Below are positions 50-18,929 of a DNA stretch of 19,889 nucleotides, piece after piece. Within the stretch, counting starts at the first letter, position 1; each line of letters starts with the position of its first letter. The DNA is from a virus. The notes beneath the pieces were generated by a model. That model saw only the letters and a program-made list of their open reading frames with translations, made no database searches and was not told the origin of the DNA. The translations under genes and the position numbers were made by a program. Where the stretch lies: the UHGV virus genome UHGV-0130218; one strand, given 5' to 3'.

Positions 50-349
50 CTACTTCGAAGAAAGGGCAAGTTTGCGCACAGTCGTCAGGAAATTGAATGG
101 GGTTGAATCCCACAACTCAGGTGAAAAATCAAATCCATACCGGCTTTTGAACTCCTCATCCAGCCTGTCTCCGTAAAGCACAAGGAAAGAATCGACCTCT
201 TCGGCTAACTCTTTTAACATCCAGTCGGGAGCTGTTTTTTTATAGAGTTCAACAGTGCCTTCAATAGTATCCTCTCCCTCATTTATGAGGTCATGATCCT
301 GATTGAAATAACCCTGAATCAGCTGATCAAGATGATAGAAACTTTGCAT
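50..349 (-). CDS. Putative immunity protein of the adjacent toxin-like ORF
   Basis: 99-aa ORF that starts 12 nt downstream of the toxin-like ORF on the same strand. Small, acidic (D/E-rich), no catalytic motif, as is typical of immunity partners of nuclease toxins. Family not assignable by eye. Confidence 0.45.
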   Translation of the reverse strand: MQSFYHLDQLIQGYFNQDHDLINEGEDTIEGTVELYKKTAPDWMLKELAEEVDSFLVLYGDRLDEEFKSRYGFDFSPELWDSTPFNFLTTVRKLALSSK

Positions 350-361
350 AATCCACCTGTC

Positions 362-1207
362 CTATGGGGTCGGGAATGCTGTAAGGATATAGTAAGGTTT
401 TCCGTTATACTCTTGCAATTCGATAACAATCCTCACTCCACGCATGCTGATGCGCTGTGTGCTGCCTCGCGTGAATCCATACCCAACCTCCTGACCGGCA
501 GAATAATTGATGGTAAGGCGTCCACCAATTTTACCACCTCCGAGTAACGATTTGATATTTGCCCGGTTAAGATAGACCGCCCTCGAAATAACATTTTCAG
601 CAACATTTAAGTCTTTAAACGTTGAAGACATAACAAGTCGCTTATTTTTCTCGAATCGGGCAAGTAACTCACTGTCAGTTTTTCCGACATGATTTGCGAG
701 TGTATGGCCGCCGGGTTTAAGACCCGTAACTGATTCATGCTGGATCAATTTGATGCGACCAGCTTTAATTGCAGCTACACGGACGGCACCAATAGCAGCT
801 GCAAATCCAAGCGGAACGGCTATATCAACTGTCATGCCGATATTGAGGGCGGTGTCTTCATCGGCACCAAGTTCTCTTGCCGCGCTTACAGCAATTTGCC
901 AGGTGGCTGAGCGCGTATCACGACCGGTTATTAGCTGTCTGGCTGCGCTTTGAACAGCGTCAAGACTATGTGCACCAACAACCACACATCCCGCTTTCGT
1001 TAGTCCTGTTGGTTCTGGCGCGATACATAGTGCCGTGGCACCGGCCATTTCTACCGCTCCGAGTAAAACGCCAAGTCCCCCCAACAGTCGGTTACTCAGC
1101 GTTTCCGCCTCTGTAATGCTTTTATCTGAAAGCACCGCCGCCAGCTGTACCGGTGACATAACAACGACCATTCCACCTTCTTCCATAACAGTATCCCATC
1201 CCTCCAT
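362..1207 (-). CDS. Putative polymorphic-toxin-like protein (Gly/Ala-rich pre-toxin segment ending in TG plus C-terminal nuclease-like domain)
   Basis: 281-aa ORF. N-terminal part has a Gly/Ala-rich hydrophobic segment (LLGGLGVLLGAVEMAGATALCIAPEPTGL...AARQLITG) resembling pre-toxin TG domains. C-terminal ~130 aa carries GGHTLANHVGK (His-x4-His-x2-Lys), reminiscent of EndoU/RNase-type toxin domains. No secretion or delivery domain is present, and the upstream frame closes 17 codons before the ATG. Confidence 0.5.
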   Translation of the reverse strand: MEGWDTVMEEGGMVVVMSPVQLAAVLSDKSITEAETLSNRLLGGLGVLLGAVEMAGATALCIAPEPTGLTKAGCVVVGAHSLDAVQSAARQLITGRDTRSATWQIAVSAARELGADEDTALNIGMTVDIAVPLGFAAAIGAVRVAAIKAGRIKLIQHESVTGLKPGGHTLANHVGKTDSELLARFEKNKRLVMSSTFKDLNVAENVISRAVYLNRANIKSLLGGGKIGGRLTINYSAGQEVGYGFTRGSTQRISMRGVRIVIELQEYNGKPYYILTAFPTP

Positions 1208-2505: not shown

Positions 2506-2754
2506 ATGTATGATCAGTCTTTCAATCCGCGCACACTCTCACGATGTTTCAAACCTGAGGATTTCCATAAAAATAGAGCATTAAGTCTAGACAGTGTTCG
2601 AGAAAAGACTATTAACTCGGCTATCGAAAGATATAAGGATGGGTTCTTGGGTTATAATTTACGCTCATCCGTTTTAAGAGGGAAAACAGTATATTGGGCC
2701 GATGAGTTAGCTGATGTATTGGTCTTGAGGAAAATTAAAAAAAAATTTATCTAA
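2506..2754 (+). CDS. Reverse transcriptase, N-terminal (fingers) segment; frame ends inside an A9 tract
   Basis: ATG with RBS agga 8 nt upstream. 82 codons encoding ...GYNLRSSVLRGKTVYWADELADVLVLRKIKKK, consistent with RT motifs 1/2. Stops at 2752-2754, just after the A9 run at 2737-2745. Confidence 0.6.
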   Translation: MYDQSFNPRTLSRCFKPEDFHKNRALSLDSVREKTINSAIERYKDGFLGYNLRSSVLRGKTVYWADELADVLVLRKIKKKFI

Positions 2755-2845
2755 GCTATATCAATTAAGATTACCTTCTCGAACAAAGATTGTTGATACA
2801 TTAAAGGTTTTTTTATCAGAGTGTTCACAGTATAAAATATACAGA

Positions 2846-3769
2846 TTGGATATATTTTCATTTTATGAATCTTTCGATAAAAACTATATATTTAATAAAA
2901 TAGATGGATTGGAGCGGTTAGAGCTTAAAACAAAGCAGGTTCTAAAGGAATTTCTTTATTCATTCTATCTGAATGGTGGGCAAGGAATACCAAGAGGATT
3001 GTCAATCAGTGCATACTTGGCAGAGTTACTAATGTATGATTTCGATAATCAAGTGAAAGATAACCACTCTGTTTTTTATTATGCTAGGTATGTAGATGAT
3101 ATAGTTATTGTCACTAGTGGTTACGAAGATAGTGATGCTTTTATTGAGAATGTAAAATCAAACCTTCCAAATGGATTGCGTTTTAATGAAGGGAAGAAAT
3201 ATTATATTAGCGATTTAATTCCAAAATCTTCCAAAAAAACAAACCGTGCACCCTCCAAAAAATTGTTATCCTTTGAATATTTAGGGTACGATTTTAGCGT
3301 GGGAGATAAAATTGAAGAGTGCAATATAAGAGGATTCTATAGGGTAATTGAAATTGATCTTGCACATGCAAAGGCTAATAAAGTAAAAAGTAGAGTGATT
3401 TATTCGATTGTTGATTTTAATAAAACCAATGATTTTGAGTTGCTATGTGAAAGACTAAAATTCCTGTCCACAAACTTTAGTGTTTTAGATTCAGATAGAG
3501 TATTAAAACGGTTGTCGGGCATTCATTTTAATTATCCTCTTATTGATGCTAAATCTTCTAAGCGCCTTGCTGAACTTGATGTGTTTTTAAGAAAGGCTGT
3601 ATTATCATCTAGTGGTAAGGTTTTCTTTGATTTTCATGCGAACTTAAACCAATGCAAAAAATATCGATTACTTAAGATTAGTTTTGTTAGAGGCCATGAG
3701 AAACGTCATTTTTTTCATTATTCAGCTTCAAAAATGATGAAAATTCAAAGGTGTTGGAAATATGTCTAA
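2846..3769 (+). CDS. Reverse transcriptase, palm/thumb segment (the frame is open from 2729, so it is likely continuous with 2506-2754 after a +1 shift)
   Basis: RT motif A YRLDIFSFYESFDKNYIF, motif B QGIPRGLSISAYLAELLMYDFD, motif C YYARYVDDIVIV, motif D/E LRFNEGKKYYIS. No ATG or GTG precedes these motifs in this frame; the ORF track uses TTG at 2846. AT-rich. Confidence 0.8.
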   Translation: MDIFSFYESFDKNYIFNKIDGLERLELKTKQVLKEFLYSFYLNGGQGIPRGLSISAYLAELLMYDFDNQVKDNHSVFYYARYVDDIVIVTSGYEDSDAFIENVKSNLPNGLRFNEGKKYYISDLIPKSSKKTNRAPSKKLLSFEYLGYDFSVGDKIEECNIRGFYRVIEIDLAHAKANKVKSRVIYSIVDFNKTNDFELLCERLKFLSTNFSVLDSDRVLKRLSGIHFNYPLIDAKSSKRLAELDVFLRKAVLSSSGKVFFDFHANLNQCKKYRLLKISFVRGHEKRHFFHYSASKMMKIQRCWKYV

Positions 3770-5714
3770 AAAAAAGGAAGTAAGAGTTAATAAAAAAGAT
3801 TTTAATAGGGTTTTAGTTACTGAAACCATACCCTATGAAACGCCTATAATAGTGTCCAATGATGGTTTTTATAACAATGTAGTTAAATATACAACGGCCA
3901 ATGATACTGCTAAGGTATTGATTCAAAGAATAATTCTAGGGGAAAAGAAGAAAGGTAGGTATACGATTCCCTATGTTTTTAAAATTAATAAAAATGAGAC
4001 GGAGTTTCGACGTTTAGCCTTTCCACACCCCATATCTCAGATTGAAATGCGGGATTTTTATCTCCATTTTAATCAAATGATGATCAATTTTTGTTCCCGT
4101 AGTGATTTTTCTATTCGGCGACCGGTGAAGGTTGCAAGTACATATTATTATAAGAACTTATTGGAAGACAAGAATTTATATAAGAGAGGGCCTGTTGATA
4201 CCGACAAAAATGAACTATTAACTCGGCATGCTTCTTCATATTTTGGCTATCACGGATATGATCGCCTGTATAAGTTCTTTATGTCTAATGAGTTTATTGA
4301 CCTTGAGCGTAAATATAATACGCTATATACATTAGATGTTTCAAAATGTTTCGACAGTATCTATACTCATTCAATTTCTTGGGCTGCAAAAACCAAGACT
4401 TTCATTAAAGGGATGTTAGCTAATAAATCATTAAACTTTGGTGATGCTTTTGATAAATTAATGCAACGTTGCAACTTTAACGAAACCCATGGTGTAATTA
4501 TCGGTCCAGAAATTAGTCGAATATTCGCTGAGGTTATATTTCAAAAAATAGATTTAAATGTTCAGTTTAAATTAAATAATATCGAGCCATCGATACGTAA
4601 GGGTATCGATTATGATATTCGCCGTTATGTTGATGATGTTTTTATTTTTGCTAAAAATGAAACTAATGCCGAAATTATATATAAGATTTACACTGATAAA
4701 CTGAATGAATATAACATGCATATAAATTTGGGTAAAGTAACAAAAAACACTCGACCTTTTATCACAGCAAAAACGCAAATTATACATCACGTCAATCAAA
4801 GAATGAATTTATTTATTGAATCTTTTCTTGGTTATGATGATGAAATGAAATTAATCGCAAAGCCAATATATAACAATAGGAAGTTAGCTAACAAATTTAT
4901 AGATGAGGTGAAAATAATATGTGCTGAAAATAATGCGGGATATGGTGAGGTTGCTTCTTATATTGTGTCGGCGATTTTTGAAAGAATTAAAAGATTAACT
5001 TCTTCAGTTAATCAAGTCGAAGATAAAGATATATACAATGCAATGTATGTTTTGCTCCATATTTCATTGTTCTTTTTCAGAGTTGCTCCGTCTGTTAGTT
5101 CATCATATAAATTGGCTTCAATACTTATCGTGGCTCTCAGATATTTTAAGGCTAAAGTACCATCATACAGTGAGCTTATAGCATCATATGTTTATTTTGA
5201 AATTGAAGACTTTCTTAAATCTGCTAATACTAGCAAAGTAGCCATAGATAATCTAATTAGTCTTGAGGCATATAATATTATGTATGTTATAGGTGAGCTA
5301 GATCAAGAACGATATTTATCAAAACAGTTGATTGAGAACATTTTTAGTGAAGTTGATTCTTATTTTGATATAGTGTCCTGTCTATATATCGTAAAGGATA
5401 AGAAAGTTTATAATACACTTAAAAATAAAATTATTGATATTATTAACTCCAAGTTAATGTCAAGTGATAGTATTTTGGATTATAGTGAAAAGGCAATGCT
5501 CTTTTTGGATGTTATGTCTTGCCCTTATATTGATTTAAAATGGAAAAAAATATGGTTGAAATCAACTTTAAAAGAATTGCAAGAAGCTACTCCTAACAAT
5601 GAAAAAATAGATAGTTTTATCAGTTATTCTGTAGCGAATCCTTGGTTTGTGGACTGGAGTAATGTCGATCTTTTGAATTTCTTAGAAAAAAAACAATTGA
5701 AAAAAGCCTATTGA
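3762..5714 (+). CDS. Reverse transcriptase with long alpha-helical C-terminal extension (UG/Abi-type, defence-associated RT-like)
   Basis: 650 aa. Motif A YTLDVSKCFDSIYTHSI, motif B HGVIIGPEISRIFAEVIF, motif C RRYVDDVFIFAKN, followed by ~300 aa of predicted helical sequence. Its ATG overlaps the upstream RT stop by 8 nt, indicating translational coupling. AT-rich. Confidence 0.85.
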   Translation: MSKKKEVRVNKKDFNRVLVTETIPYETPIIVSNDGFYNNVVKYTTANDTAKVLIQRIILGEKKKGRYTIPYVFKINKNETEFRRLAFPHPISQIEMRDFYLHFNQMMINFCSRSDFSIRRPVKVASTYYYKNLLEDKNLYKRGPVDTDKNELLTRHASSYFGYHGYDRLYKFFMSNEFIDLERKYNTLYTLDVSKCFDSIYTHSISWAAKTKTFIKGMLANKSLNFGDAFDKLMQRCNFNETHGVIIGPEISRIFAEVIFQKIDLNVQFKLNNIEPSIRKGIDYDIRRYVDDVFIFAKNETNAEIIYKIYTDKLNEYNMHINLGKVTKNTRPFITAKTQIIHHVNQRMNLFIESFLGYDDEMKLIAKPIYNNRKLANKFIDEVKIICAENNAGYGEVASYIVSAIFERIKRLTSSVNQVEDKDIYNAMYVLLHISLFFFRVAPSVSSSYKLASILIVALRYFKAKVPSYSELIASYVYFEIEDFLKSANTSKVAIDNLISLEAYNIMYVIGELDQERYLSKQLIENIFSEVDSYFDIVSCLYIVKDKKVYNTLKNKIIDIINSKLMSSDSILDYSEKAMLFLDVMSCPYIDLKWKKIWLKSTLKELQEATPNNEKIDSFISYSVANPWFVDWSNVDLLNFLEKKQLKKAY

Positions 5715-5880
5715 ATTGCTAATTTGTTGTTGAAGCAACCAATATGCCCTACACGATTTTTCGATATACTAGGGCTGATTACGGTAGGTAAGTTGCATGT
5801 AACCTGGCCTACCTTATGACGCTCAAGAGCAGAAATGCACACACTAAGGGATGAGGTTGCTTCAACCCCTTTTATTTTCT
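5715..5880 (+). ncRNA. Candidate structured non-coding RNA downstream of the RT operon
   Basis: 5729-5740 GTTGAAGCAACC and 5855-5866 GGTTGCTTCAAC are perfect reverse complements (12 bp), enclosing ~115 nt with internal stems such as 5784-5789 GGTAGG / 5808-5813 CCTACC. A T-rich tail follows. No ORF. Confidence 0.35.
5848..5880 (+). terminator. Putative intrinsic terminator for the RT operon
   Basis: Stem GGTTG-CTT-CAACC at 5855-5867 followed by CCTTTTATTTTCT. The int stop codon (5862-5864 on the minus strand) lies in the loop. Confidence 0.4.
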
Positions 5881-7058
5881 ACAAAATTCCCCCACCACAG
5901 CATCAGCTCTACTCTTTGTTGCAAATAGACAGAGCGGTTGTATGCTCTTCGTACCTCATTCTTATCAGAATGAGCTAGTGCTGCTTCAATGACGTCTGGA
6001 TTAAATCCTTCTTCATTAAGCGTCGTGCTAGCTATCGAGCGTAAGCCATGAGCAACTAGCTTCCCATTCCAGCCAACTCTTTTTAGTGCAGCATTAGCCG
6101 TCTGGCTATTCATAGCTTTCTTAGGGTCATTTCTACTTGGAAAAACATGATCACGGTGCTTACTGATGGGTGCCATGATCTCAAGAATATAAAGCGCCTG
6201 AGGAGATAGAGGAATTAAATGTTCACGCTTCGCTTTCATCCTTTCGGCGGGGATTGTCCAGAGTTTTGAGTCGAGATCGATCTCTTCCCACCTGGTACCG
6301 GAGGCTTCAGAAGGGCGTACAAGGGTTAGGAGTTGCCACTCAATTAGACAGCGAGTAGGAACAGACAGATTTGACATAACCAAAGAACGCATCAGACTTG
6401 GTAATTCTTCTGGTCTAAGCGTAGGCATATTTTGCTTTTTAGGCCTCTCAAAAGCCATTCCAACTCCTGAGGTTGGGTTTGCGTCAATCAAGCCGGTATT
6501 TACCGCGTAAATCATAATCTCATTAATACGCTGTACCAGACGACGAACAGTCTCCAGAGCACCACGCGCTTTGATTGGCTCTAATGCTTCAACAATTGTT
6601 CTGGCCTTAATCTCCTGAACAGGTATCGTGCCTATTGCAGGGAAAACGTCCTTGTCTAAAGATCGCCAAATATCTTTTGCATAGTCTTCGGTGACGCTTT
6701 TGCTCTTCATTTTGAACCAGTTGGTGGCCACAGTTGAGAAAATGCTATCCAGCTCTATCTGACGCTTTTCTGATGCATGCTCTTGTTGCTGTTGTGGATC
6801 CATATCTAGCGCGAGCATGGTTAAGTGCTGGTCGCGTATCTGACGAGCTGCTGCGAGTGTAAAGGCAGGGTATGAGCCGAGACTCAAATTTGTGCGGCTG
6901 CTGCTTCCCGGTCGTTGATAACGGAAGCGCCAGAGTTTTTTGCCGGAGGTTTTTACGAGTAAGAACAGGCCATCACCATCATGCAGGGTGAAGTCTTTTT
7001 CGCGGGGTTTTGCTTTGAGGATTTCGTTGTTAGTGAGGGGGCGTGTAATGCGCGCCAT
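5862..7058 (-). CDS. int: P4-type tyrosine integrase
   Basis: 398 aa. N-terminus LTNNEILKAKPREKDFTLHDGDGLFLLVKTSGKKLWRFRYQRPG is typical of P4-family integrase arm-binding domains. The C-terminal catalytic region has HGLRS...LAHSDKNEVRRAYNRSVYL (R, H-x-x-R, Y). RBS aggga upstream. It is adjacent to a tmRNA 3' fragment, as with CP4-57 intA. Confidence 0.9.
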   Translation of the reverse strand: MARITRPLTNNEILKAKPREKDFTLHDGDGLFLLVKTSGKKLWRFRYQRPGSSSRTNLSLGSYPAFTLAAARQIRDQHLTMLALDMDPQQQQEHASEKRQIELDSIFSTVATNWFKMKSKSVTEDYAKDIWRSLDKDVFPAIGTIPVQEIKARTIVEALEPIKARGALETVRRLVQRINEIMIYAVNTGLIDANPTSGVGMAFERPKKQNMPTLRPEELPSLMRSLVMSNLSVPTRCLIEWQLLTLVRPSEASGTRWEEIDLDSKLWTIPAERMKAKREHLIPLSPQALYILEIMAPISKHRDHVFPSRNDPKKAMNSQTANAALKRVGWNGKLVAHGLRSIASTTLNEEGFNPDVIEAALAHSDKNEVRRAYNRSVYLQQRVELMLWWGNFVENKRG

Positions 7059-7171: not shown

Positions 7172-7210
7172 ACAAAAAAGCCCGCAGGGCTTGCGCCGTG
7201 CGGGCTTTCA
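7172..7210 (-). terminator. Intrinsic terminator downstream of the tmRNA 3' fragment (minus strand)
   Basis: Minus-strand reading: GCCCGCA-(12-nt loop)-TGCGGGC followed by TTTTTTGTG (plus coordinates 7205-7172). Confidence 0.5.
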
Positions 7211-7262
7211 GGACTTCATCGGATGACTCTGGTAATCACCGATGGAACATTTTGGTGGAGCT

Positions 7263-7300
7263 GGCGGGAGTTGAACCCGCATCCGTAACCAGCTATCTCA
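7263..7300 (-). other. ssrA: tmRNA (ssrA) 3'-terminal fragment serving as att core (not a complete gene)
   Basis: Reverse complement of 7263-7290 is GCGGGTTCAACTCCCGCCAGCTCCACCA, which matches the T-arm, acceptor 3' strand and CCA end of enterobacterial tmRNA. Sequence beyond 7300 is AT-rich coding DNA with no tag-peptide region. Confidence 0.7.
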
Positions 7301-7311
7301 TTGAAAAATAA

Positions 7312-8172
7312 TCAAATAAATTTGTTTTTCCATGTCTCGTATCTTTTACGTATCCTTTGAAGTAGTAATGCCGTCCAGCTAAGGCCGTGAGAGAATGTTA
7401 GATTAAAAGTTGCTTCCACTGTATCTCCACGTATTGAGAATCTATTTATCCGATATTCAGTAGAAAAAAACTCTTTTTTTGTTGTTCCAGAGATTTCTTC
7501 ATATTCAATTAATAAAACAGGCCCATCTATTTGAGTTAACATATTTTCATGGAGGCTGATTTTATCCAAGAGGTAGTTAGATAATAGTGTCGGTATTAAT
7601 GTGGGGATGTGAAGATTTACCTCTTCTTTGTTAACGCTCCAAGGGAGAATATAAACAACATCAGAATATTGTTCTTCATGAGAATACCATTTGGATTGAC
7701 CAAAACCTAATAATGAAATGTAAGTGTGACCTTGTTTGTCTAATTGATAACAGTATTCATTAGCCATCATGGCTGCTTTGTAACCTTTGGTGTCAAAGGT
7801 ATGTTCATCGTCTAGTTTTTTTATTTTATTTAACAAAAAATGTTTTTCGTAATTGAATATCCATTGGTATTTGAATTTCAACGCTGGGCCTAGACCAACA
7901 TTTAATATTGGCAGGGTGGGATTGTTGTTTTTTGATATAGCATCAAAAACACCTTTGTTTACTATTTTTGTTTTATCAATTTTTATTTTTACATCTTTAG
8001 TGATTATCTGTACTTTGTTTGATAACTTTCTTTGGATAACAGTTTGCCTTATAGCTAAATAAGCAGCAATTGCTGATAAAGCACTTGCTGTCAAACCACC
8101 ATATCCGAGCCATGCGGGGTCTGCCATATCGAAGTATTCCTGCCTTATAACAAGGCAGGAATTATTTCTCAA
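7312..8172 (-). CDS. Hypothetical membrane-anchored protein; AT-rich moron between the lambdoid int and the att core
   Basis: 286-codon ORF with a TTG start; a more likely ATG start at 8127 gives MADPAWLGYGGLTASALSAIAAYLAI, a predicted N-terminal transmembrane helix. The ~240-aa soluble domain has no motif I recognise. Strongly AT-rich compared with the neighbouring int. Confidence 0.6.
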   Translation of the reverse strand: MRNNSCLVIRQEYFDMADPAWLGYGGLTASALSAIAAYLAIRQTVIQRKLSNKVQIITKDVKIKIDKTKIVNKGVFDAISKNNNPTLPILNVGLGPALKFKYQWIFNYEKHFLLNKIKKLDDEHTFDTKGYKAAMMANEYCYQLDKQGHTYISLLGFGQSKWYSHEEQYSDVVYILPWSVNKEEVNLHIPTLIPTLLSNYLLDKISLHENMLTQIDGPVLLIEYEEISGTTKKEFFSTEYRINRFSIRGDTVEATFNLTFSHGLSWTALLLQRIRKRYETWKNKFI

Positions 8173-9344
8173 TTCTTCACATTGTTCAAGGATGTGATCG
8201 ATGAGTTGTTATCATAATCTTTCAAATAGCGTCCGTAATGACGAAAGAGCATCTCAGGTCCTTTGTGGCCCATCTGCGCAGCCAGCCAAAATAAGTTTAC
8301 ACCGCAGCTTATCATACGTGTGGCGAATGTATGCCTTGTCTGATAAGGATTACGGTACCTGATACCGGCTTTCCGGAGCGTAGGAACCCAGGCTTTTTTC
8401 CTAATGGCGTCCGCGCTGGCCCATGGCTTGTTTGTCTTCGGATCTTCAAAGACACAACCATTCTTCATGAAGCTAAAGGGCTTTTGTTCGTTTAGAGCAA
8501 TCATCGCTTCCTCGGTTAACTCAACCTTGCGTGTTCCTGCCTTCGTTTTCGTACCTTTCGTCACGCCAGAGACGCTGGCGCTCTGTACATGAGCCGTCTT
8601 CTCAACGAAGTCAATGTCCCTCCAGCGTAGTGCGCAAAGTTCCGAACTGCGTAGACCTGTCTGAAGCGCAAATCTGAATAAGTTCTCCCATTGCTTATTA
8701 CCCGCTGATTTTAACAGCGCGCTTACCTCTGCTGGAGATAGTGGATCAACAATATAAGTACTTTCCTCGTCACTTTTTTTGCTTTGATATCGTGAAGCTG
8801 TTACCTGTGACACTGGATTAATTTGTAAAACACCATCAGTTACAGCTTCATCAAGTGAGGAACGAAGAAACGACAACTGGTTACGTATCGTCTTCAATGT
8901 TGTTTTCTGATTCTGAATCCATGTTTTTAATGCTGCTGGCGTTAACTCACTGGCCGGGAAAATGTGAAGTTCAGACAGTGCGCTACGGCATTTTTTATAC
9001 CCGCCAATGGTGGAGGGGGAAAGATTCCTCGTTTCGCAAATCTTCAGGTACTCATCAAGATACATTTTCACTGTTTTCCCGGTCGCAGCATTACCGAAAA
9101 TTTTTAACCTCACCGAACGAGGGAAATATTCAGCATAGATAAATGTTCCACGCTCGATTTTGTTGTGGATTTCGCCGAGCATACGCTCGGCATATTTAAG
9201 GTTTTTGTTGTTCACTTCTAGATTTGAAAGGGGTTCTCTGCATTTCACCCCCTTGTATGTGAACGTAATATTGATGGTTTCACCACTGCTGTGCTTCCTG
9301 ATGGTTACACCACGTGGGAGTTTAGGCGATTCTTTCGTGCCCAT
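8169..9344 (-). CDS. int: Phage tyrosine integrase (lambdoid type)
   Basis: 391 aa. C-terminal catalytic region RNPYQTRHTFATRMISCGVNLFWLAAQMGHKGPEMLFRHYGRYL (R...H-x-x-R...Y). Its start overlaps the xis-like ORF. Confidence 0.9.
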   Translation of the reverse strand: MGTKESPKLPRGVTIRKHSSGETINITFTYKGVKCREPLSNLEVNNKNLKYAERMLGEIHNKIERGTFIYAEYFPRSVRLKIFGNAATGKTVKMYLDEYLKICETRNLSPSTIGGYKKCRSALSELHIFPASELTPAALKTWIQNQKTTLKTIRNQLSFLRSSLDEAVTDGVLQINPVSQVTASRYQSKKSDEESTYIVDPLSPAEVSALLKSAGNKQWENLFRFALQTGLRSSELCALRWRDIDFVEKTAHVQSASVSGVTKGTKTKAGTRKVELTEEAMIALNEQKPFSFMKNGCVFEDPKTNKPWASADAIRKKAWVPTLRKAGIRYRNPYQTRHTFATRMISCGVNLFWLAAQMGHKGPEMLFRHYGRYLKDYDNNSSITSLNNVKN

Positions 9345-15070: not shown

Positions 15071-15250
15071 ATGCGCGAAGTTAACCGAAGGTTCAAAGAC
15101 CACAGAGGGATCCCCGTTCGGGTTATCCGGTGGGAGCCAGAGACTCAACGAGTTATCTACCTGCGGGATGGTTATAACCACGAATGTTTCAGCCCGCTCG
15201 AACAATTTAAGCGCAAGTTTACAGAGTTAAAGGACGACCATGAGCACTAA
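15071..15250 (+). CDS. Small conserved phage protein (59 aa), below the ORF-track size cutoff
   Basis: ATG at 15071 with GAAGG upstream. Encodes MREVNRRFKDHRGIPVRVIRWEPETQRVIYLRDGYNHECFSPLEQFKRKFTELKDDHEH, a balanced protein-like composition. It overlaps the next gene start and lies fully inside the low-complexity 14850-15230 frame. Confidence 0.4.
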   Translation: MREVNRRFKDHRGIPVRVIRWEPETQRVIYLRDGYNHECFSPLEQFKRKFTELKDDHEH

Positions 15251-16103
15251 ATTAACGGGTTACGTTTGGGACGCTTGTGCCGCTTCTGGCATGAAGCTGT
15301 CCAGCGTTGCCATCATGGCGCGTCTGGCAGACTTCAGCAGTGATGAAGGGGTTAGCTGGCCTTCCATCGCTACCATTGCGCGCCAGATTGGTGCCGGTGA
15401 GAGCACGGTTCGCACAGCCATATCTCAACTGGAAAAAGACGGGTGGTTAACCCGTCAGCAGCGCCGTAAAGGCAACCGCAATGCATCGAACGTTTACCAG
15501 CTTAATGTTGCGAAATTACAGGCTGCTGCCTTTTCTCACCTGTCAGATTCTGACGCATCAAAATCTGATGCCTCAAAAACCGACGCGTCAAAATCTGAGG
15601 CATCAAAAAACGATGAAAAAGGCGGTTTTCACCCGTCAGAATCTGGGGGGGATCCGTCAGTAAATACAACTACTGATCCATCAGATAAAAAACATTCTTG
15701 TCCGGTTGCTGCGCAACCCGACCCTGTGGTGGTTATCACCGATCAGGCGAAGCAGGTTTTATCACATCTGAACAAGACCACTGGTTCACGGTATCAGGTC
15801 TGCAAATCGTCCTTGGAAAACATCCGGGCTCGCCTGGCTGACGGGTTTACGCCCGATGAGCTGCTGTTGGTGGTGGATTACAGCGTCGAGAAGTGGGGCG
15901 AGGATCTGAAAATGGCCGAATACCTGCGCCCAACAACGTTGTTTTTGCCATCTAAATTCCCAGGTTACCTGCAATCCGCAAATAAGTGGAACGCAGCAGG
16001 ACGCCCAGAACGACAGTACTGGGGCTCAATTCGTAAGCATGATCCGATGAAATTTGGTGGGCCAGATAAAGCCATCCCAGCTGGCTTCAGGGGAGCGAAA
16101 TGA
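15240..16103 (+). CDS. Replication initiator (lambda O-like; N-terminal winged-HTH, C-terminal phage replication-protein domain) with internal repeats
   Basis: 287 aa. N-terminal HTH-like segment VSWPSIATIARQIGAGESTVRTAISQLEKDGWL. Central (S/T)DASK pentapeptide repeats encoded by 15-bp tandem repeats. Position after cro/cII as for lambda O. Confidence 0.65.
   Translation: MSTKLTGYVWDACAASGMKLSSVAIMARLADFSSDEGVSWPSIATIARQIGAGESTVRTAISQLEKDGWLTRQQRRKGNRNASNVYQLNVAKLQAAAFSHLSDSDASKSDASKTDASKSEASKNDEKGGFHPSESGGDPSVNTTTDPSDKKHSCPVAAQPDPVVVITDQAKQVLSHLNKTTGSRYQVCKSSLENIRARLADGFTPDELLLVVDYSVEKWGEDLKMAEYLRPTTLFLPSKFPGYLQSANKWNAAGRPERQYWGSIRKHDPMKFGGPDKAIPAGFRGAK
15549..15608 (+). repeat. Four tandem 15-bp repeats inside the O-like gene; candidate origin iterons
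   Basis: tctgacgcatcaaaa / tctgatgcctcaaaa / accgacgcgtcaaaa / tctgaggcatcaaaa, in frame (coding SDASK-like repeats). Analogous to the lambda ori iterons, which lie within O. Confidence 0.5.
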
Positions 16104-16999
16104 TGAGCATGAATGCTGATAACAAATATTGCCGCGCGCTGGCTGAACTTCGCTCAAAGCCAGCGCATGAATTGAAAGAGGTTGGCGATCAGTGGCGCAC
16201 TCCGGATTTGTTGTTTTGGGGCATCAATTCGATATTTGGGCCGATGGTTCTGGATCTGTTTGCAGACGATAGCAATGCTAAATGCCCTGCATGGTATACC
16301 GCCGAAGATAACGCGCTGACGCAGGATTGGTCAGTGCGTCTGGCAGAACTCGGTGGCGCCGCGTTTGCAAATCCGCCTTATAGCCGTTCTCAGTACCATG
16401 AAAAGCAGGCCATCACTGGCATGACCCACATCATGAATCACACAATGGCGATGCGTGATAAAGGTGGTCGTTACATATACCTCGTGAAGTCAGCCACAAG
16501 TGAAACATGGTGGCCGGAGGATGCCGATCACATCATGTTTATTCGTGGTCGTATTGGGTTCGATCTTCCTGTTTGGTTTGTTCCCGCTGACGAGAAGCAG
16601 CAACCCACCAGCGCATTTTTTGCCGGGGCAATCGCTGTCTTTGACAAAACCTGGCGTGGTGAAAGCTTCAGCTATATCAATCGCACCGAACTGGAAGAAA
16701 AAGGGCGAGCAGCATTGTCATTGGCTCAATTCGCCGCGGCAAAAATGGCCCTTCCGTCCGTGCCGGAAAAAGCAATGCCTACTGCCATTGCAACGCCTGA
16801 TGCAGAGTCGCGCATCTGGCCGCTGGAGGTTGGTCTGGTATTCAATCAGCTCGAGGGGGCGGATTCTCTGGAGGTGAACCAACAGAACAAGTTGAAGGCC
16901 AACATCAACCAACTCTGGCTGGAGCGTGTGCCTACCAGCGAAATAATTAGCGTGGCTGGTGGTCTGATTAGCAGCATGCAGGGGGCCGTCAATGCGTGA
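16100..16999 (+). CDS. Phage N6-adenine DNA methyltransferase (Dam-type)
   Basis: 299 aa. N-terminal WRTPDLLFWGINSIFGPMVLDLFADDSNAKCPAWYT and catalytic motif FANPPYS. Overlaps the upstream gene by 4 nt and the downstream gene by 8 nt. Confidence 0.7.
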   Translation: MMSMNADNKYCRALAELRSKPAHELKEVGDQWRTPDLLFWGINSIFGPMVLDLFADDSNAKCPAWYTAEDNALTQDWSVRLAELGGAAFANPPYSRSQYHEKQAITGMTHIMNHTMAMRDKGGRYIYLVKSATSETWWPEDADHIMFIRGRIGFDLPVWFVPADEKQQPTSAFFAGAIAVFDKTWRGESFSYINRTELEEKGRAALSLAQFAAAKMALPSVPEKAMPTAIATPDAESRIWPLEVGLVFNQLEGADSLEVNQQNKLKANINQLWLERVPTSEIISVAGGLISSMQGAVNA

Positions 17000-18929
17000 A
17001 ATCATCGTTGATAACTTTGCCGGTGGTGGCGGCGCGAGTACCGGCATTGAACTGGCCATCGGGCGTAGCGTGGATATCGCTATCAACCACGACGAAAACG
17101 CTATTGCGATGCATAAGACGAATCACCCTGACACGCTGCATTATTGCGAGTCGGTGTTTGACGTTGACCCAAGCGCAGCCACCAGCGGTAAACCTGTCGG
17201 TCTGGCCTGGTTTAGCCCTGACTGCCGCCACTTTTCCAAAGCTAAGGGCGCTAAGCCGGTTAAGAAAGAGATTCGCGGGCTGGCGTGGATTGTTCTGCGC
17301 TGGGCGCTGGCAGTACGTCCCCGCGTCATGATGCTGGAGAACGTCGAAGAATTTAAGACATGGGGCCCGCTGCTGGATGAAGAATTACGCCCGGATCCTG
17401 AGCGTGCTGGTGAAACATTCGAGGCATTTGTCGGCATGCTGTCGACTGGTATCGCGGCGAATCACCCAGCACTGGCTGAGGTTTGCGAATTTCTTGCCAT
17501 TGAGCCGCACGGCCAGCAGGCGCAACAGCTGATCGCTGGGCTTGGCTATGAGGTCGATTATCGTGAGCTGCGCGCTTGTGATTACGGCGCGCCGACGATC
17601 AGAAAGCGTTTCTTCATGGTCATGCGCTGTGACGGCCGCAAGATTCATTGGCCTGAAGCGACTCATGGGGATCCAAAATCACTGGAAGTACAAAGCGGCA
17701 AGCTGGCGCCATGGCGTACCGCGGCGGAGTGCATTGACTGGAATATCCCGGCCCGGTCCATCTTCGACCGCAAAAAGCCGCTGGCGGAAAATACGCTCAA
17801 ACGTATCGCGCGCGGCATCCAGCGCTTTGTTATCGAAAGCGCATCGCCTTTCATCGTGAAGTGTAACCACACCACGACGAAAGGAGGTTATGACTGTTTC
17901 CGCGGGCAATCGTTGTTAGAGCCATTGCAGACCATCACTAAAAAGCATGGCTACGCGCTGGCGGTACCGCATCTTACTAAATTCCGCACCGGGGCCACCG
18001 GGCAGCCAGTGACCGAGCCGGTACCAACTGTCACCGCTGGTACGTCGGCTCGCCCGGGCGGTAATGGGCATGCGCTTGGCGTAGTTGAGGCCGCGCTGAC
18101 ACCGTTCCTGGCGGGCAATGGCGGCAGTGAGTACCAGGCAAAGCCGCGCCCGCTGGATAAACCCGCTCATACAATCCTCAAGCAGTCCCGCGCGTGTGTG
18201 GTTGCTCCTGTCATCGCCCGCCAGTTTGGTGCCAGTGTTGGGCACAGGGCAGACGAGCCTAGCGCAACGATTACTGCTGGCGGTGGCGGTAAATCGCAGC
18301 TGGTAACCCCAACACTGATCCAGATGGGATACGGCGAACGCCCAGGGCAAGAACCGCGTGTTCTTCAACTGAATAACCCGCTCGGCACGGTCACTGCTGG
18401 TGGTAATAAGTTTGCGGCGGTGAGCGCGTTCCTGGCGAAGCACTATGGTGGGAATTACTCGGGGCCGGGTGTTGGTATGGATGAGCCTGCCCACTCAGTC
18501 ACTACCGTTGATCATCACGCGGTAGTTGCGTCGCACCTGGTGAAGCTGCGCGGAACCTGCCGCGACGGTCAGACCATGGATACACCTATGCCGACGATTA
18601 CCGCTGGTGGCCAGCACGTTGGCGAGGTCCGGACATTCCTCGAAACCTACTGCGGTGAAAGCGAGGATGAATGGCTGGTGACGATCGAAGGAGTTAAGTA
18701 CCAGATCATCGATATCGGAATGCGCATGCTGCAACCGCATGAGCTTTATAAGGCGCAGGGCTTCCCTGACGGCTACGTTATCGATCAGGACTATCGCGGC
18801 AATCGTTACGCCAAAGACAAGCAGGTAGCGCGCTGCGGTAACGCAGTACCGCCGCCGTTCGCTCGTGCGCTGGTAGAGGCAAATCTTCCTGAATTATGTG
18901 CAAATCAAAAGGCGGGTGCAGCCGCCTGA
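16992..18929 (+). CDS. C5-cytosine DNA methyltransferase with an expanded repeat-containing variable region
   Basis: 645 aa. Motif I FAGGGG, motif IV region FSPDCRHFS, motif VI MLENV, C-terminal ARCGNAVPPPFA. The central region holds about seven ~36-aa modules, each with a P-x-x-T-(I/V)-T core. Confidence 0.85.
   Translation: MREIIVDNFAGGGGASTGIELAIGRSVDIAINHDENAIAMHKTNHPDTLHYCESVFDVDPSAATSGKPVGLAWFSPDCRHFSKAKGAKPVKKEIRGLAWIVLRWALAVRPRVMMLENVEEFKTWGPLLDEELRPDPERAGETFEAFVGMLSTGIAANHPALAEVCEFLAIEPHGQQAQQLIAGLGYEVDYRELRACDYGAPTIRKRFFMVMRCDGRKIHWPEATHGDPKSLEVQSGKLAPWRTAAECIDWNIPARSIFDRKKPLAENTLKRIARGIQRFVIESASPFIVKCNHTTTKGGYDCFRGQSLLEPLQTITKKHGYALAVPHLTKFRTGATGQPVTEPVPTVTAGTSARPGGNGHALGVVEAALTPFLAGNGGSEYQAKPRPLDKPAHTILKQSRACVVAPVIARQFGASVGHRADEPSATITAGGGGKSQLVTPTLIQMGYGERPGQEPRVLQLNNPLGTVTAGGNKFAAVSAFLAKHYGGNYSGPGVGMDEPAHSVTTVDHHAVVASHLVKLRGTCRDGQTMDTPMPTITAGGQHVGEVRTFLETYCGESEDEWLVTIEGVKYQIIDIGMRMLQPHELYKAQGFPDGYVIDQDYRGNRYAKDKQVARCGNAVPPPFARALVEANLPELCANQKAGAAA

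Follow-up and report, generated by a model that had tools for sequence, protein, structure and literature searches.

A candidate membrane-tethered anti-phage gene in the variable integrase-attachment site interval of a lambdoid prophage

Overview

The virus genome UHGV-0130218 of the UHGV collection was analysed as one stretch of 19,889 nucleotides (nt), here called the window, with attention to an AT-rich open reading frame (ORF) on the minus strand that lies between the integrase gene (int) and the attachment (att) core of a lambdoid prophage. This gene is real and under selection, and the int-att interval in which it resides is a genuine variable cargo slot of this integrase lineage. Our best explanation, to which we give a probability of about 0.5, is that the ORF encodes an anti-phage protein, acting by exclusion or by abortive infection, which the lysogen would express from a self-contained moron cassette. 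We infer this function from genomic context and protein architecture, and regard the gene as a good candidate for a new phage-defence gene. More tentatively, and at rather less than even odds, the protein could be the first one recognised in a large family of anti-phage proteins, stand-alone, membrane-tethered and so far without annotation, ranging in this reading from Enterobacteriaceae to Burkholderiales, Fibrobacter and Deltaproteobacteria, with a cytoplasmic domain that lacks a counterpart among solved structures and, in the window, with a cassette insulated by a fold-back hairpin; the interval between int and attP of ssrA-integrating lambdoids would then constitute a defence hotspot, of which no description was found in the literature searched.

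The int-att interval as a variable cargo slot

The original prediction had placed the ORF between a lambdoid integrase and the att core, and the following features bear this out:

7312..8127, minus strand: coding sequence of the 271-amino acid (aa) protein, stop codon included, defined by homologue starts, PHROG 7259 and a dN/dS (nonsynonymous to synonymous substitution ratio) of 0.146
8169..9344, minus strand: lambda-type tyrosine integrase of 391 aa (Pfam Arm-DNA-bind_2 3.9e-22, Phage_integrase 2.5e-19)
7253..7280, minus strand: att core, a 28-nt perfect match to the ssrA (tmRNA) 3' end; a single occurrence in the window, none being expected by chance
7178..7192, minus strand: resident ssrA intrinsic terminator, AAGCCCTGCGGGCTT then TTTTGTGTCT, inside the match to the ssrA flank

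Beyond the core the match continued through the ssrA terminator and its flank, with 88% identity to E. coli, and no whole tmRNA gene was detected in the window by ARAGORN or Rfam, which returned only a sub-threshold 3' fragment. Since the ssrA 3' end, terminator and flank directly follow the ORF and a whole tmRNA gene is absent, the ORF is the last prophage gene before the att junction. The integrase was 94% identical to that of phage LLS, a free temperate phage (PMC12315714) whose record (PQ299149) has attP and a tmRNA pseudogene annotated at the equivalent place; the gene is last before attP both in this free phage and in prophages.

The original prediction had also taken the int-att interval as a typical moron position and had proposed a check on recurrence of the gene beside other integrases. 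Both points were addressed in 80 IMG/VR prophage loci with integrases 84-99% identical to that of the window; in each locus we recorded where int ends, where the ssrA core lies and whether a family member is present. The slot proved to be variable, with the same site filled or unfilled in close relatives:

Family member directly after int: 33/80 loci, distance from int stop to ssrA core 849-901 nt
Empty slot: 7/80 loci, distance 66-78 nt
Other cargo: at least 21/80 loci, distance about 1.5-2.85 kb
Contig ended or no core was located: remaining loci, distance not measurable

The gene recurred directly after the integrase even in the form of alleles only 22-35% identical, and the 31 family proteins of the slot fell into 11 clusters at 50% identity and seven at 35%, behind integrases that are 84-99% identical to that of the window. 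The other cargo was AT-rich too (GC 0.32-0.38) and of several kinds. One set consisted of DarT (Pfam 1.7e-23) with a NADAR-DarT1 antitoxin (2e-91), and another of an AAA_15/21 ATPase with PD-Lambda-5_B (E = 2.8e-123). Anti-phage activity has been published for both DarTG and PD-Lambda-5, so that the slot accommodates, besides the family, systems validated according to the literature. A third set combined a DUF4325 (STAS-like) protein, a protein of about 300 aa with a weak HATPase_c-like match and a third gene (loci L074, L098, L099, L057 and L102, slot at about 4170-6400 in each); no PADLOC model matched this cargo, and it may be regarded as a candidate uncharacterised defence system. Two further cargos, distributed over L063, L065, L066, L100, L052, L088-L093 and L097, were a ParA-like AAA_31 ATPase with two unannotated proteins, including a weak PDC-M28B match, and a pair of 127 and 271 aa on the opposite strand without any match whatever. 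A DUF4760 protein was another occupant.

The last ~15 codons of int (window about 8172-8215, and the equivalent in L027-L106) varied with the type of cargo that follows. This places the cassette boundary inside int, and exchange of cargo therefore recombines within int and rewrites the C-terminus of the integrase. A comparable situation has been described for the P2 and P4 hotspots, which are fixed slots of temperate elements with interchangeable anti-phage cargo (Rousset et al., 2022; PMC9122126). The int-attP slot resembles them in being a fixed place beside conserved genes with interchangeable AT-rich cargo; it differs in lineage (lambdoid and ssrA-integrating), in the slot itself and in the left cargo boundary, which here falls inside the int coding sequence.

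Start codon, base composition and selection

In the ORF listing the minus-strand ORF spans 7312..8172 (286 aa), and its TTG at 8172 overlaps the int stop codon. Whereas the existence of the ORF was confirmed by the listing, by homologues and by the dN/dS value, the start at 8172 implied by the original prediction had to be moved. All 26 close homologues begin with M-A/S-D/E-P, aligned with an ATG at 8127; a database copy from Enterobacter hormaechei (P0001) is 271 aa long and 100% identical to the window protein; and a purine-rich Shine-Dalgarno (SD) sequence, GGCAGGA (8144-8138), lies 10 nt 5' of this ATG. Since homologue N-termini, database copy and SD all agree, the true start is almost certainly ATG 8127, which gives 271 aa rather than 286, and the TTG at 8172 is probably not a start codon.

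Base composition of the ORF (GC 0.333, GC at third codon positions 0.276) was unlike that of the neighbouring phage genes (0.45-0.49 for int, xis and exo; 0.451 for int and 0.489 for xis) and close to that of the DRT3 genes of the adjacent island (0.30-0.31), in line with the earlier remark that the ORF is much more AT-rich than int and resembles the reverse transcriptase cargo. Comparison with the LLS allele (76% identical) gave the dN/dS of 0.146, reflecting purifying selection. For the same pair of phages the synonymous divergence (dS) of the ORF was 1.0 vs. 0.48 for int, and the first 42 codons of the ORF tracked int; this suggests that alleles, or their C-terminal parts, may have been exchanged.

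Putative promoter and conserved hairpin upstream of the gene

The short region between the end of int and the ATG contains the following elements:

8184..8189, minus strand: -35-like hexamer TTGAAC, inferred by consensus scan, within the last ~15 codons of int
8161..8166, minus strand: putative -10-like hexamer AATAAT, of which the last two bases form part of the hairpin's 5' arm
8136..8162, minus strand: hairpin ATTCCTGCCTT-gttat-AAGGCAGGAAT, 11 bp by folding, whose 3' arm contains the SD at 8144-8138

TTGAAC, a 17-nt spacer and AATAAT (8189-8161) make up a putative sigma-70-like promoter in the 3' end of int. The pattern TTG(A/C)NN, exactly 17 nt and (A/G)ATAAT was kept in 23/23 distinct int-linked family loci, in which the spacers were only 55% identical and the position of the int stop codon shifted; (A/G)ATAAT was invariant in 26 distinct sequences. 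A moron is expected to have a promoter and a terminator of its own. A putative promoter precedes the gene at every one of the 23 loci, and the host ssrA terminator is, once the prophage is integrated, the sole terminator-like site beyond the ORF.

The 5' arm of the hairpin is a pyrimidine stretch that starts in the -10 element, and its 3' arm is rich in purines and stops 6-10 nt short of the start codon. RNAalifold predicted the hairpin independently from the 26 distinct sequences, with compensatory changes in nine of 10 pairs. Pairing reached 90.4%, as compared with 40-54% in slid controls, and none of 500 shuffles attained the observed covariation. Promoter and hairpin were absent from loci in which the slot was empty or held other cargo. 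No Rfam family matched the hairpin, and no intrinsic terminator occurred between int and the ORF. The frequent U-G wobbles fit the sense-strand RNA only and indicate a sense RNA structure rather than a DNA palindrome; for the same reason a DNA operator was disfavoured. An int retroregulator of the sib or tI kind was set aside as well, the hairpin being int-linked in both phage and prophage states, devoid of a U-tract and present only with family cargo. Neither is it a leader common to the whole family, since distant members do not have it.

This arrangement of promoter and hairpin would insulate the gene from read-through. Because the 5' arm starts within the -10 element, a transcript from the gene's own promoter should lack that arm and keep the SD free, while RNA reading through from int or from pL would fold the hairpin and stay untranslated. 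The same logic is known from fold-back inhibition in IS10, where the SD is base-paired, within a hairpin, to an upstream stretch found only in transcripts that come from outside, so that only own-promoter transcripts are translated. IS10/Tn10 and the present case are alike in having the SD within a hairpin whose 5' arm lies upstream, here beginning in the -10 element, and the arm would in the present case too be confined to external transcripts; they differ in setting, the IS10 product being a transposase and the present gene a prophage moron whose insulation is predicted from sequence.

A widespread protein family without annotation

The window protein belongs directly to PHROG 7259 (E = 1.6e-42, 146.7 bits; positions 7-264 of the 277 of the profile aligned with residues 20-278, as numbered in the 286-aa reading), a group of unknown function, so that membership adds no functional information. 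No Pfam or NCBIfam match was obtained for it. A word-indexed search yielded 27 clusters, all from Enterobacteriaceae, and a HMMER profile search of 1.84 billion representatives retrieved 602 proteins at E <= 1e-3, 133 of them at <= 1e-10. These relatives were nearly all 230-290 aa long and matched over their full length, giving a family of ~600 clusters at 50% identity. Named members came from Cronobacter, Citrobacter, E. coli, Fibrobacter, Limnobacter, Chromobacterium, Bordetella, Peristeroidobacter and Deltaproteobacteria, and all were called 'hypothetical'. The family is, by the profile search, much wider than phages. In a set of 50,697 phage records LLS was the sole carrier. No family member was detected in 5,426 complete E. 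coli genomes by megablast with two alleles, and a scan of GTDB representative genomes gave no confirmed relative. In the literature searched no paper on the family was found, and the LLS paper does not discuss the gene (gene 31 of that phage).

The earlier statement that the domain has no recognisable motif was upheld, and the remote-homology and fold comparisons that the original prediction called for gave the same picture. None of 120 relatives passed any Pfam cut-off (there were only four single sub-threshold matches), the family profile had no sequence match in the PDB, and no convincing fold match was obtained. Homology to a housekeeping family, which would have counted against the prediction, was not found in these searches, and the gene does recur in related prophages. 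One relative carries the JGI name 'UPF0716 family protein affecting phage T7 exclusion'; this name was rejected, as the FxsA match scored 20.8 bits, below the cut-off of 25.2. Distant members are stand-alone genes of islets, have no conserved neighbour, and adjoin a degraded integrase, YoeB/YefM with an FRG protein, SymE, HicA or an OLD-family ATPase.

Predicted architecture and topology

Three parts can be distinguished in the protein, the middle one being assigned to the cytoplasm by prediction:

8050..8112, minus strand: transmembrane (TM) helix, residues 6-26, with a small-residue face at 11, 14, 15, 18, 19, 21, 22 and 25
7378..8007, minus strand: beta-rich globular domain, residues 41-250, predicted cytoplasmic, with a family-invariant N76-x-G78-L-G80-x-A82, and W89, P162, P175 and D/E211
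7318..7377, minus strand: basic C-terminal helix LQRIRKRY..., residues 251-270, conserved in the enterobacterial subgroup only

AlphaFold2 modelled a confident fold, with a helix at residues 4-36. In the alignment of 120 members, which is the basis of the family-wide statements that follow, the most conserved parts were the TM helix, the juxtamembrane segment Q32-R33-x-x-S-Y-K-P, the beta-hairpin motif N76-x-G78-L-G80-x-A82, W89, P162, P175 and D211, the rest of the globular domain being variable. The single N-terminal TM helix claimed in the original prediction was clear across the family, with a median Kyte-Doolittle 19-residue mean of 2.09 and 94% of members at >= 1.6, and marginal in the window allele (1.32); a second hydrophobic segment was not seen in the alignment. 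Lysine plus arginine averaged 0.34 on the N flank of the helix vs. 3.66 on the C flank, which was the richer in 120/120 members. The topology prediction proposed earlier thus comes out, on this charge bias, as a single-pass inner-membrane protein with the N-terminus out and the C-terminus in, and the beta-rich domain of ~230 aa is therefore predicted to be cytoplasmic. Such a location argues against masking of a receptor at the cell surface.

Persistence of the cassette in Klebsiella

In Klebsiella pneumoniae the gene and its promoter persist in a prophage remnant about 3 kb from an intact ssrA. An insertion sequence (IS) element, which has taken the place of int, and a 49-residue int remnant lie between ssrA and the family gene (L003, 2818-6834; CP153603), so that the prophage has been reduced to the moron cassette. 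One Klebsiella allele occurred on at least 1000 contigs. A possible partner, a 266-aa gene found downstream at loci of both Klebsiella and Citrobacter, was rejected: it is 87% identical between the two genera and represents host flank. A gene for a 1260-aa protein, without Pfam or PADLOC match, also adjoins the remnant (L002, L004 and L005, 140-3922, minus strand) and may be another uncharacterised island gene.

Proposed mode of action and alternative explanations

In the proposed mechanism, the cassette would comprise its own sigma-70-type promoter in the 3' end of int, the hairpin that hides the SD and the ORF of 271 aa, with the att core and then the host ssrA terminator behind it after integration. 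The lysogen would express the gene from that promoter through transcripts starting within the 5' arm. The product would span the inner membrane once by its strongly conserved small-residue TM helix, leaving a very short N-terminus outside and, on the cytoplasmic side, a beta-rich domain that diverges fast, and it would protect the lysogen from infection by other phages. The variable domain might recognise a phage component at the membrane, and the conserved TM and juxtamembrane part could work through association of helices, with the effect that genome entry is blocked or, in an abortive infection, the membrane collapses. This division into sensor and effector is speculative. Shielding of translation would make sense if the protein were harmful to the phage's own lytic cycle.

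Known proteins offer parallels in design. Lactococcal Sie2009, Ltp of S. thermophilus, P22 SieA and HK97 gp15 are small membrane-anchored products of prophage morons, expressed by the lysogen, that block entry of phage genomes; Sie2009 and Ltp are encoded beside int in the lysogeny module and act on the outer face. The window protein would be like Sie2009 and Ltp in being int-adjacent, membrane-anchored and lysogen-expressed, and is unlike the group in sequence; SieA (164 aa) and gp15 (62 aa) are smaller than its 271 aa, and the outer-face action of Sie2009 and Ltp differs from the predicted cytoplasmic bulk of the present protein. AbiP has an N-terminal membrane anchor and a cytoplasmic domain, and this lactococcal protein shares the design without any homology found. 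With AbiP, lambda RexB and P22/lambda SieB the protein would also have in common that infection triggers an effector in the membrane, again with no homology found.

The proposed explanation is favoured by the position of the gene last before attP, the other cargo of the slot, the allelic diversity under purifying selection, the conservation pattern, the uniform charge bias, the promoter-like hexamers, the hairpin, the retention in Klebsiella and the surroundings of the distant members. Several observations weigh against an anti-phage function. Comparison by hhalign of the 120-sequence profile with P22 SieA, P22 SieB and HK97 gp15 gave probabilities of 0.2%, 0.5% and 1.8%, so homology to them was rejected, and there was no match to the SieB family PF14163 of Pfam. 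None of the 5027 models of PADLOC-DB v2 matched the window protein at E up to 1, and the same search scored the DRT3 genes of the window, as positive control, at 1e-108 to 1e-223. No conserved residues point to an enzymatic activity, and the effector step is for this reason a conjecture. By the summed Hessa scale (+3.6 kcal/mol) the TM segment of the window allele is weakly hydrophobic, pyrimidines predominate where transcription would be expected to start, and one distant member lies amid housekeeping genes. Finally, hotspot neighbours speak of opportunity and not of function, and several of the other slot occupants are uncharacterised too.

Four other explanations have to be set against the same data. 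A lysogenic-conversion or fitness factor, altering envelope physiology, stress tolerance or virulence in a manner unrelated to phages, would be comparable to Bor and Lom of lambda or to the gtr genes; P22 carries gtrABC adjacent to attP, the cassette has a putative promoter of its own, and the Klebsiella allele, retained in a remnant and so abundant on contigs, should be beneficial or harmless to a host without the phage. We consider this unlikely nonetheless, given the cytoplasmic location predicted for the globular domain in all 120 members, the lack of an enzymatic or transporter signature in Pfam and the allelic diversity behind near-identical integrases, which together with the defence and toxin-antitoxin (TA) cargo of the slot fits an arms race better. 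A toxic membrane protein serving prophage addiction or stabilisation, or the timing of the lytic cycle, with the hairpin keeping translation low, appears less probable again. Sequestration of the SD would indeed be a tight translational control, the small-residue TM helix resembles self-associating membrane helices, distant members lie beside TA modules and the DarT-NADAR TA pair occupies the same slot; yet the gene has no partner ORF or conserved antisense element, it is alone in the Klebsiella remnant, its distant relatives lack both a conserved neighbour and the hairpin, and lambdoid lysis genes lie elsewhere, LLS having a complete five-gene lysis module (PMC12315714).

A role as an accessory gene of the early-left lytic operon, for instance in host takeover or anti-defence, with transcription from pL through int, is rather improbable in our view. 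Oriented like int and xis, the gene follows directly downstream, with no intrinsic terminator between int and itself, and b-region genes of lambda are transcribed in this way from pL through int; but the conserved hairpin would occlude the SD in precisely such read-through transcripts, a conserved putative promoter precedes the gene, and it has been kept where the whole early-left operon was lost. That the ORF is a non-functional or decaying hitch-hiker, as its 'hypothetical' annotation and its rarity (1/50,697 phage records, 0/5,426 complete E. coli genomes by megablast) might imply, is hardly credible in view of the dN/dS of 0.146, the ~600 full-length relatives at 50% clustering that share invariant motifs, the confident AlphaFold2 fold and the conserved regulatory elements.

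If the anti-phage interpretation is right, a widespread single-gene defence family has been missed by PADLOC, Pfam and NCBIfam, one that would act by a membrane-tethered mechanism without structural precedent and, through the allele found on at least 1000 Klebsiella contigs, would bear on host range in phage therapy. Whatever the function, the int-attP interval is a cargo hotspot whose unknown occupant gene sets are candidates for defence discovery, and the promoter-plus-hairpin arrangement is a clean example of a moron that would be shielded from the transcription of its host phage.

Surrounding prophage and neighbouring island

The region past int is, by sequence comparison, a lambdoid early region syntenic with phage LLS (PQ299149). 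It contains an excisionase-sized ORF, genes for a DnaQ-like exonuclease and a YfbR-like protein, DUF2303/yfdQ and yfdP-like genes, and those for a cI-type repressor, a CII-like regulator, an O-like replication protein, two methyltransferases and an antirepressor. Within the O-like replication gene (15240-16103) lie four tandem 15-nt repeats (TCAAAATCTGATGCC-like; 15543-15617, plus strand), probably origin iterons. The methyltransferase genes, adjacent at 16100-18929 (plus strand), encode a Dam-type N6-adenine enzyme and a C5-cytosine enzyme, the latter of 645 aa with additional unassigned sequence; they may serve anti-restriction.

On the other side of the att junction lies a separate island with a P4-type integrase. 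A weak Rfam match to the Salmonella island small RNA IsrM (7174-7262, minus strand; 33.5 bits vs. a gathering score of 376) overlaps the region of the ssrA terminator and probably reflects shared ssrA flank. The island carries the DRT3 system at 2506-5714 (plus strand; PADLOC Drt3a 7e-108, Drt3b 1.7e-223), in which drt3a appears split: an N-terminal ORF of 82 aa (2506-2754) stops just past a run of nine A (2737-2745), and the remainder (profile positions 114-416) resumes in another frame from about 2846. The split could be due to a frameshift, a phase-variable tract or a sequencing error. In addition, a 281-aa ORF at 362-1207 (minus strand) terminates with a toxin domain of the bacterial CdiA-CT RNase A type (3.7e-33) and is followed by a 99-aa ORF (50-349, minus strand) that could be its immunity gene; the two look like an orphan toxin-immunity module of contact-dependent inhibition (CDI) within the island.

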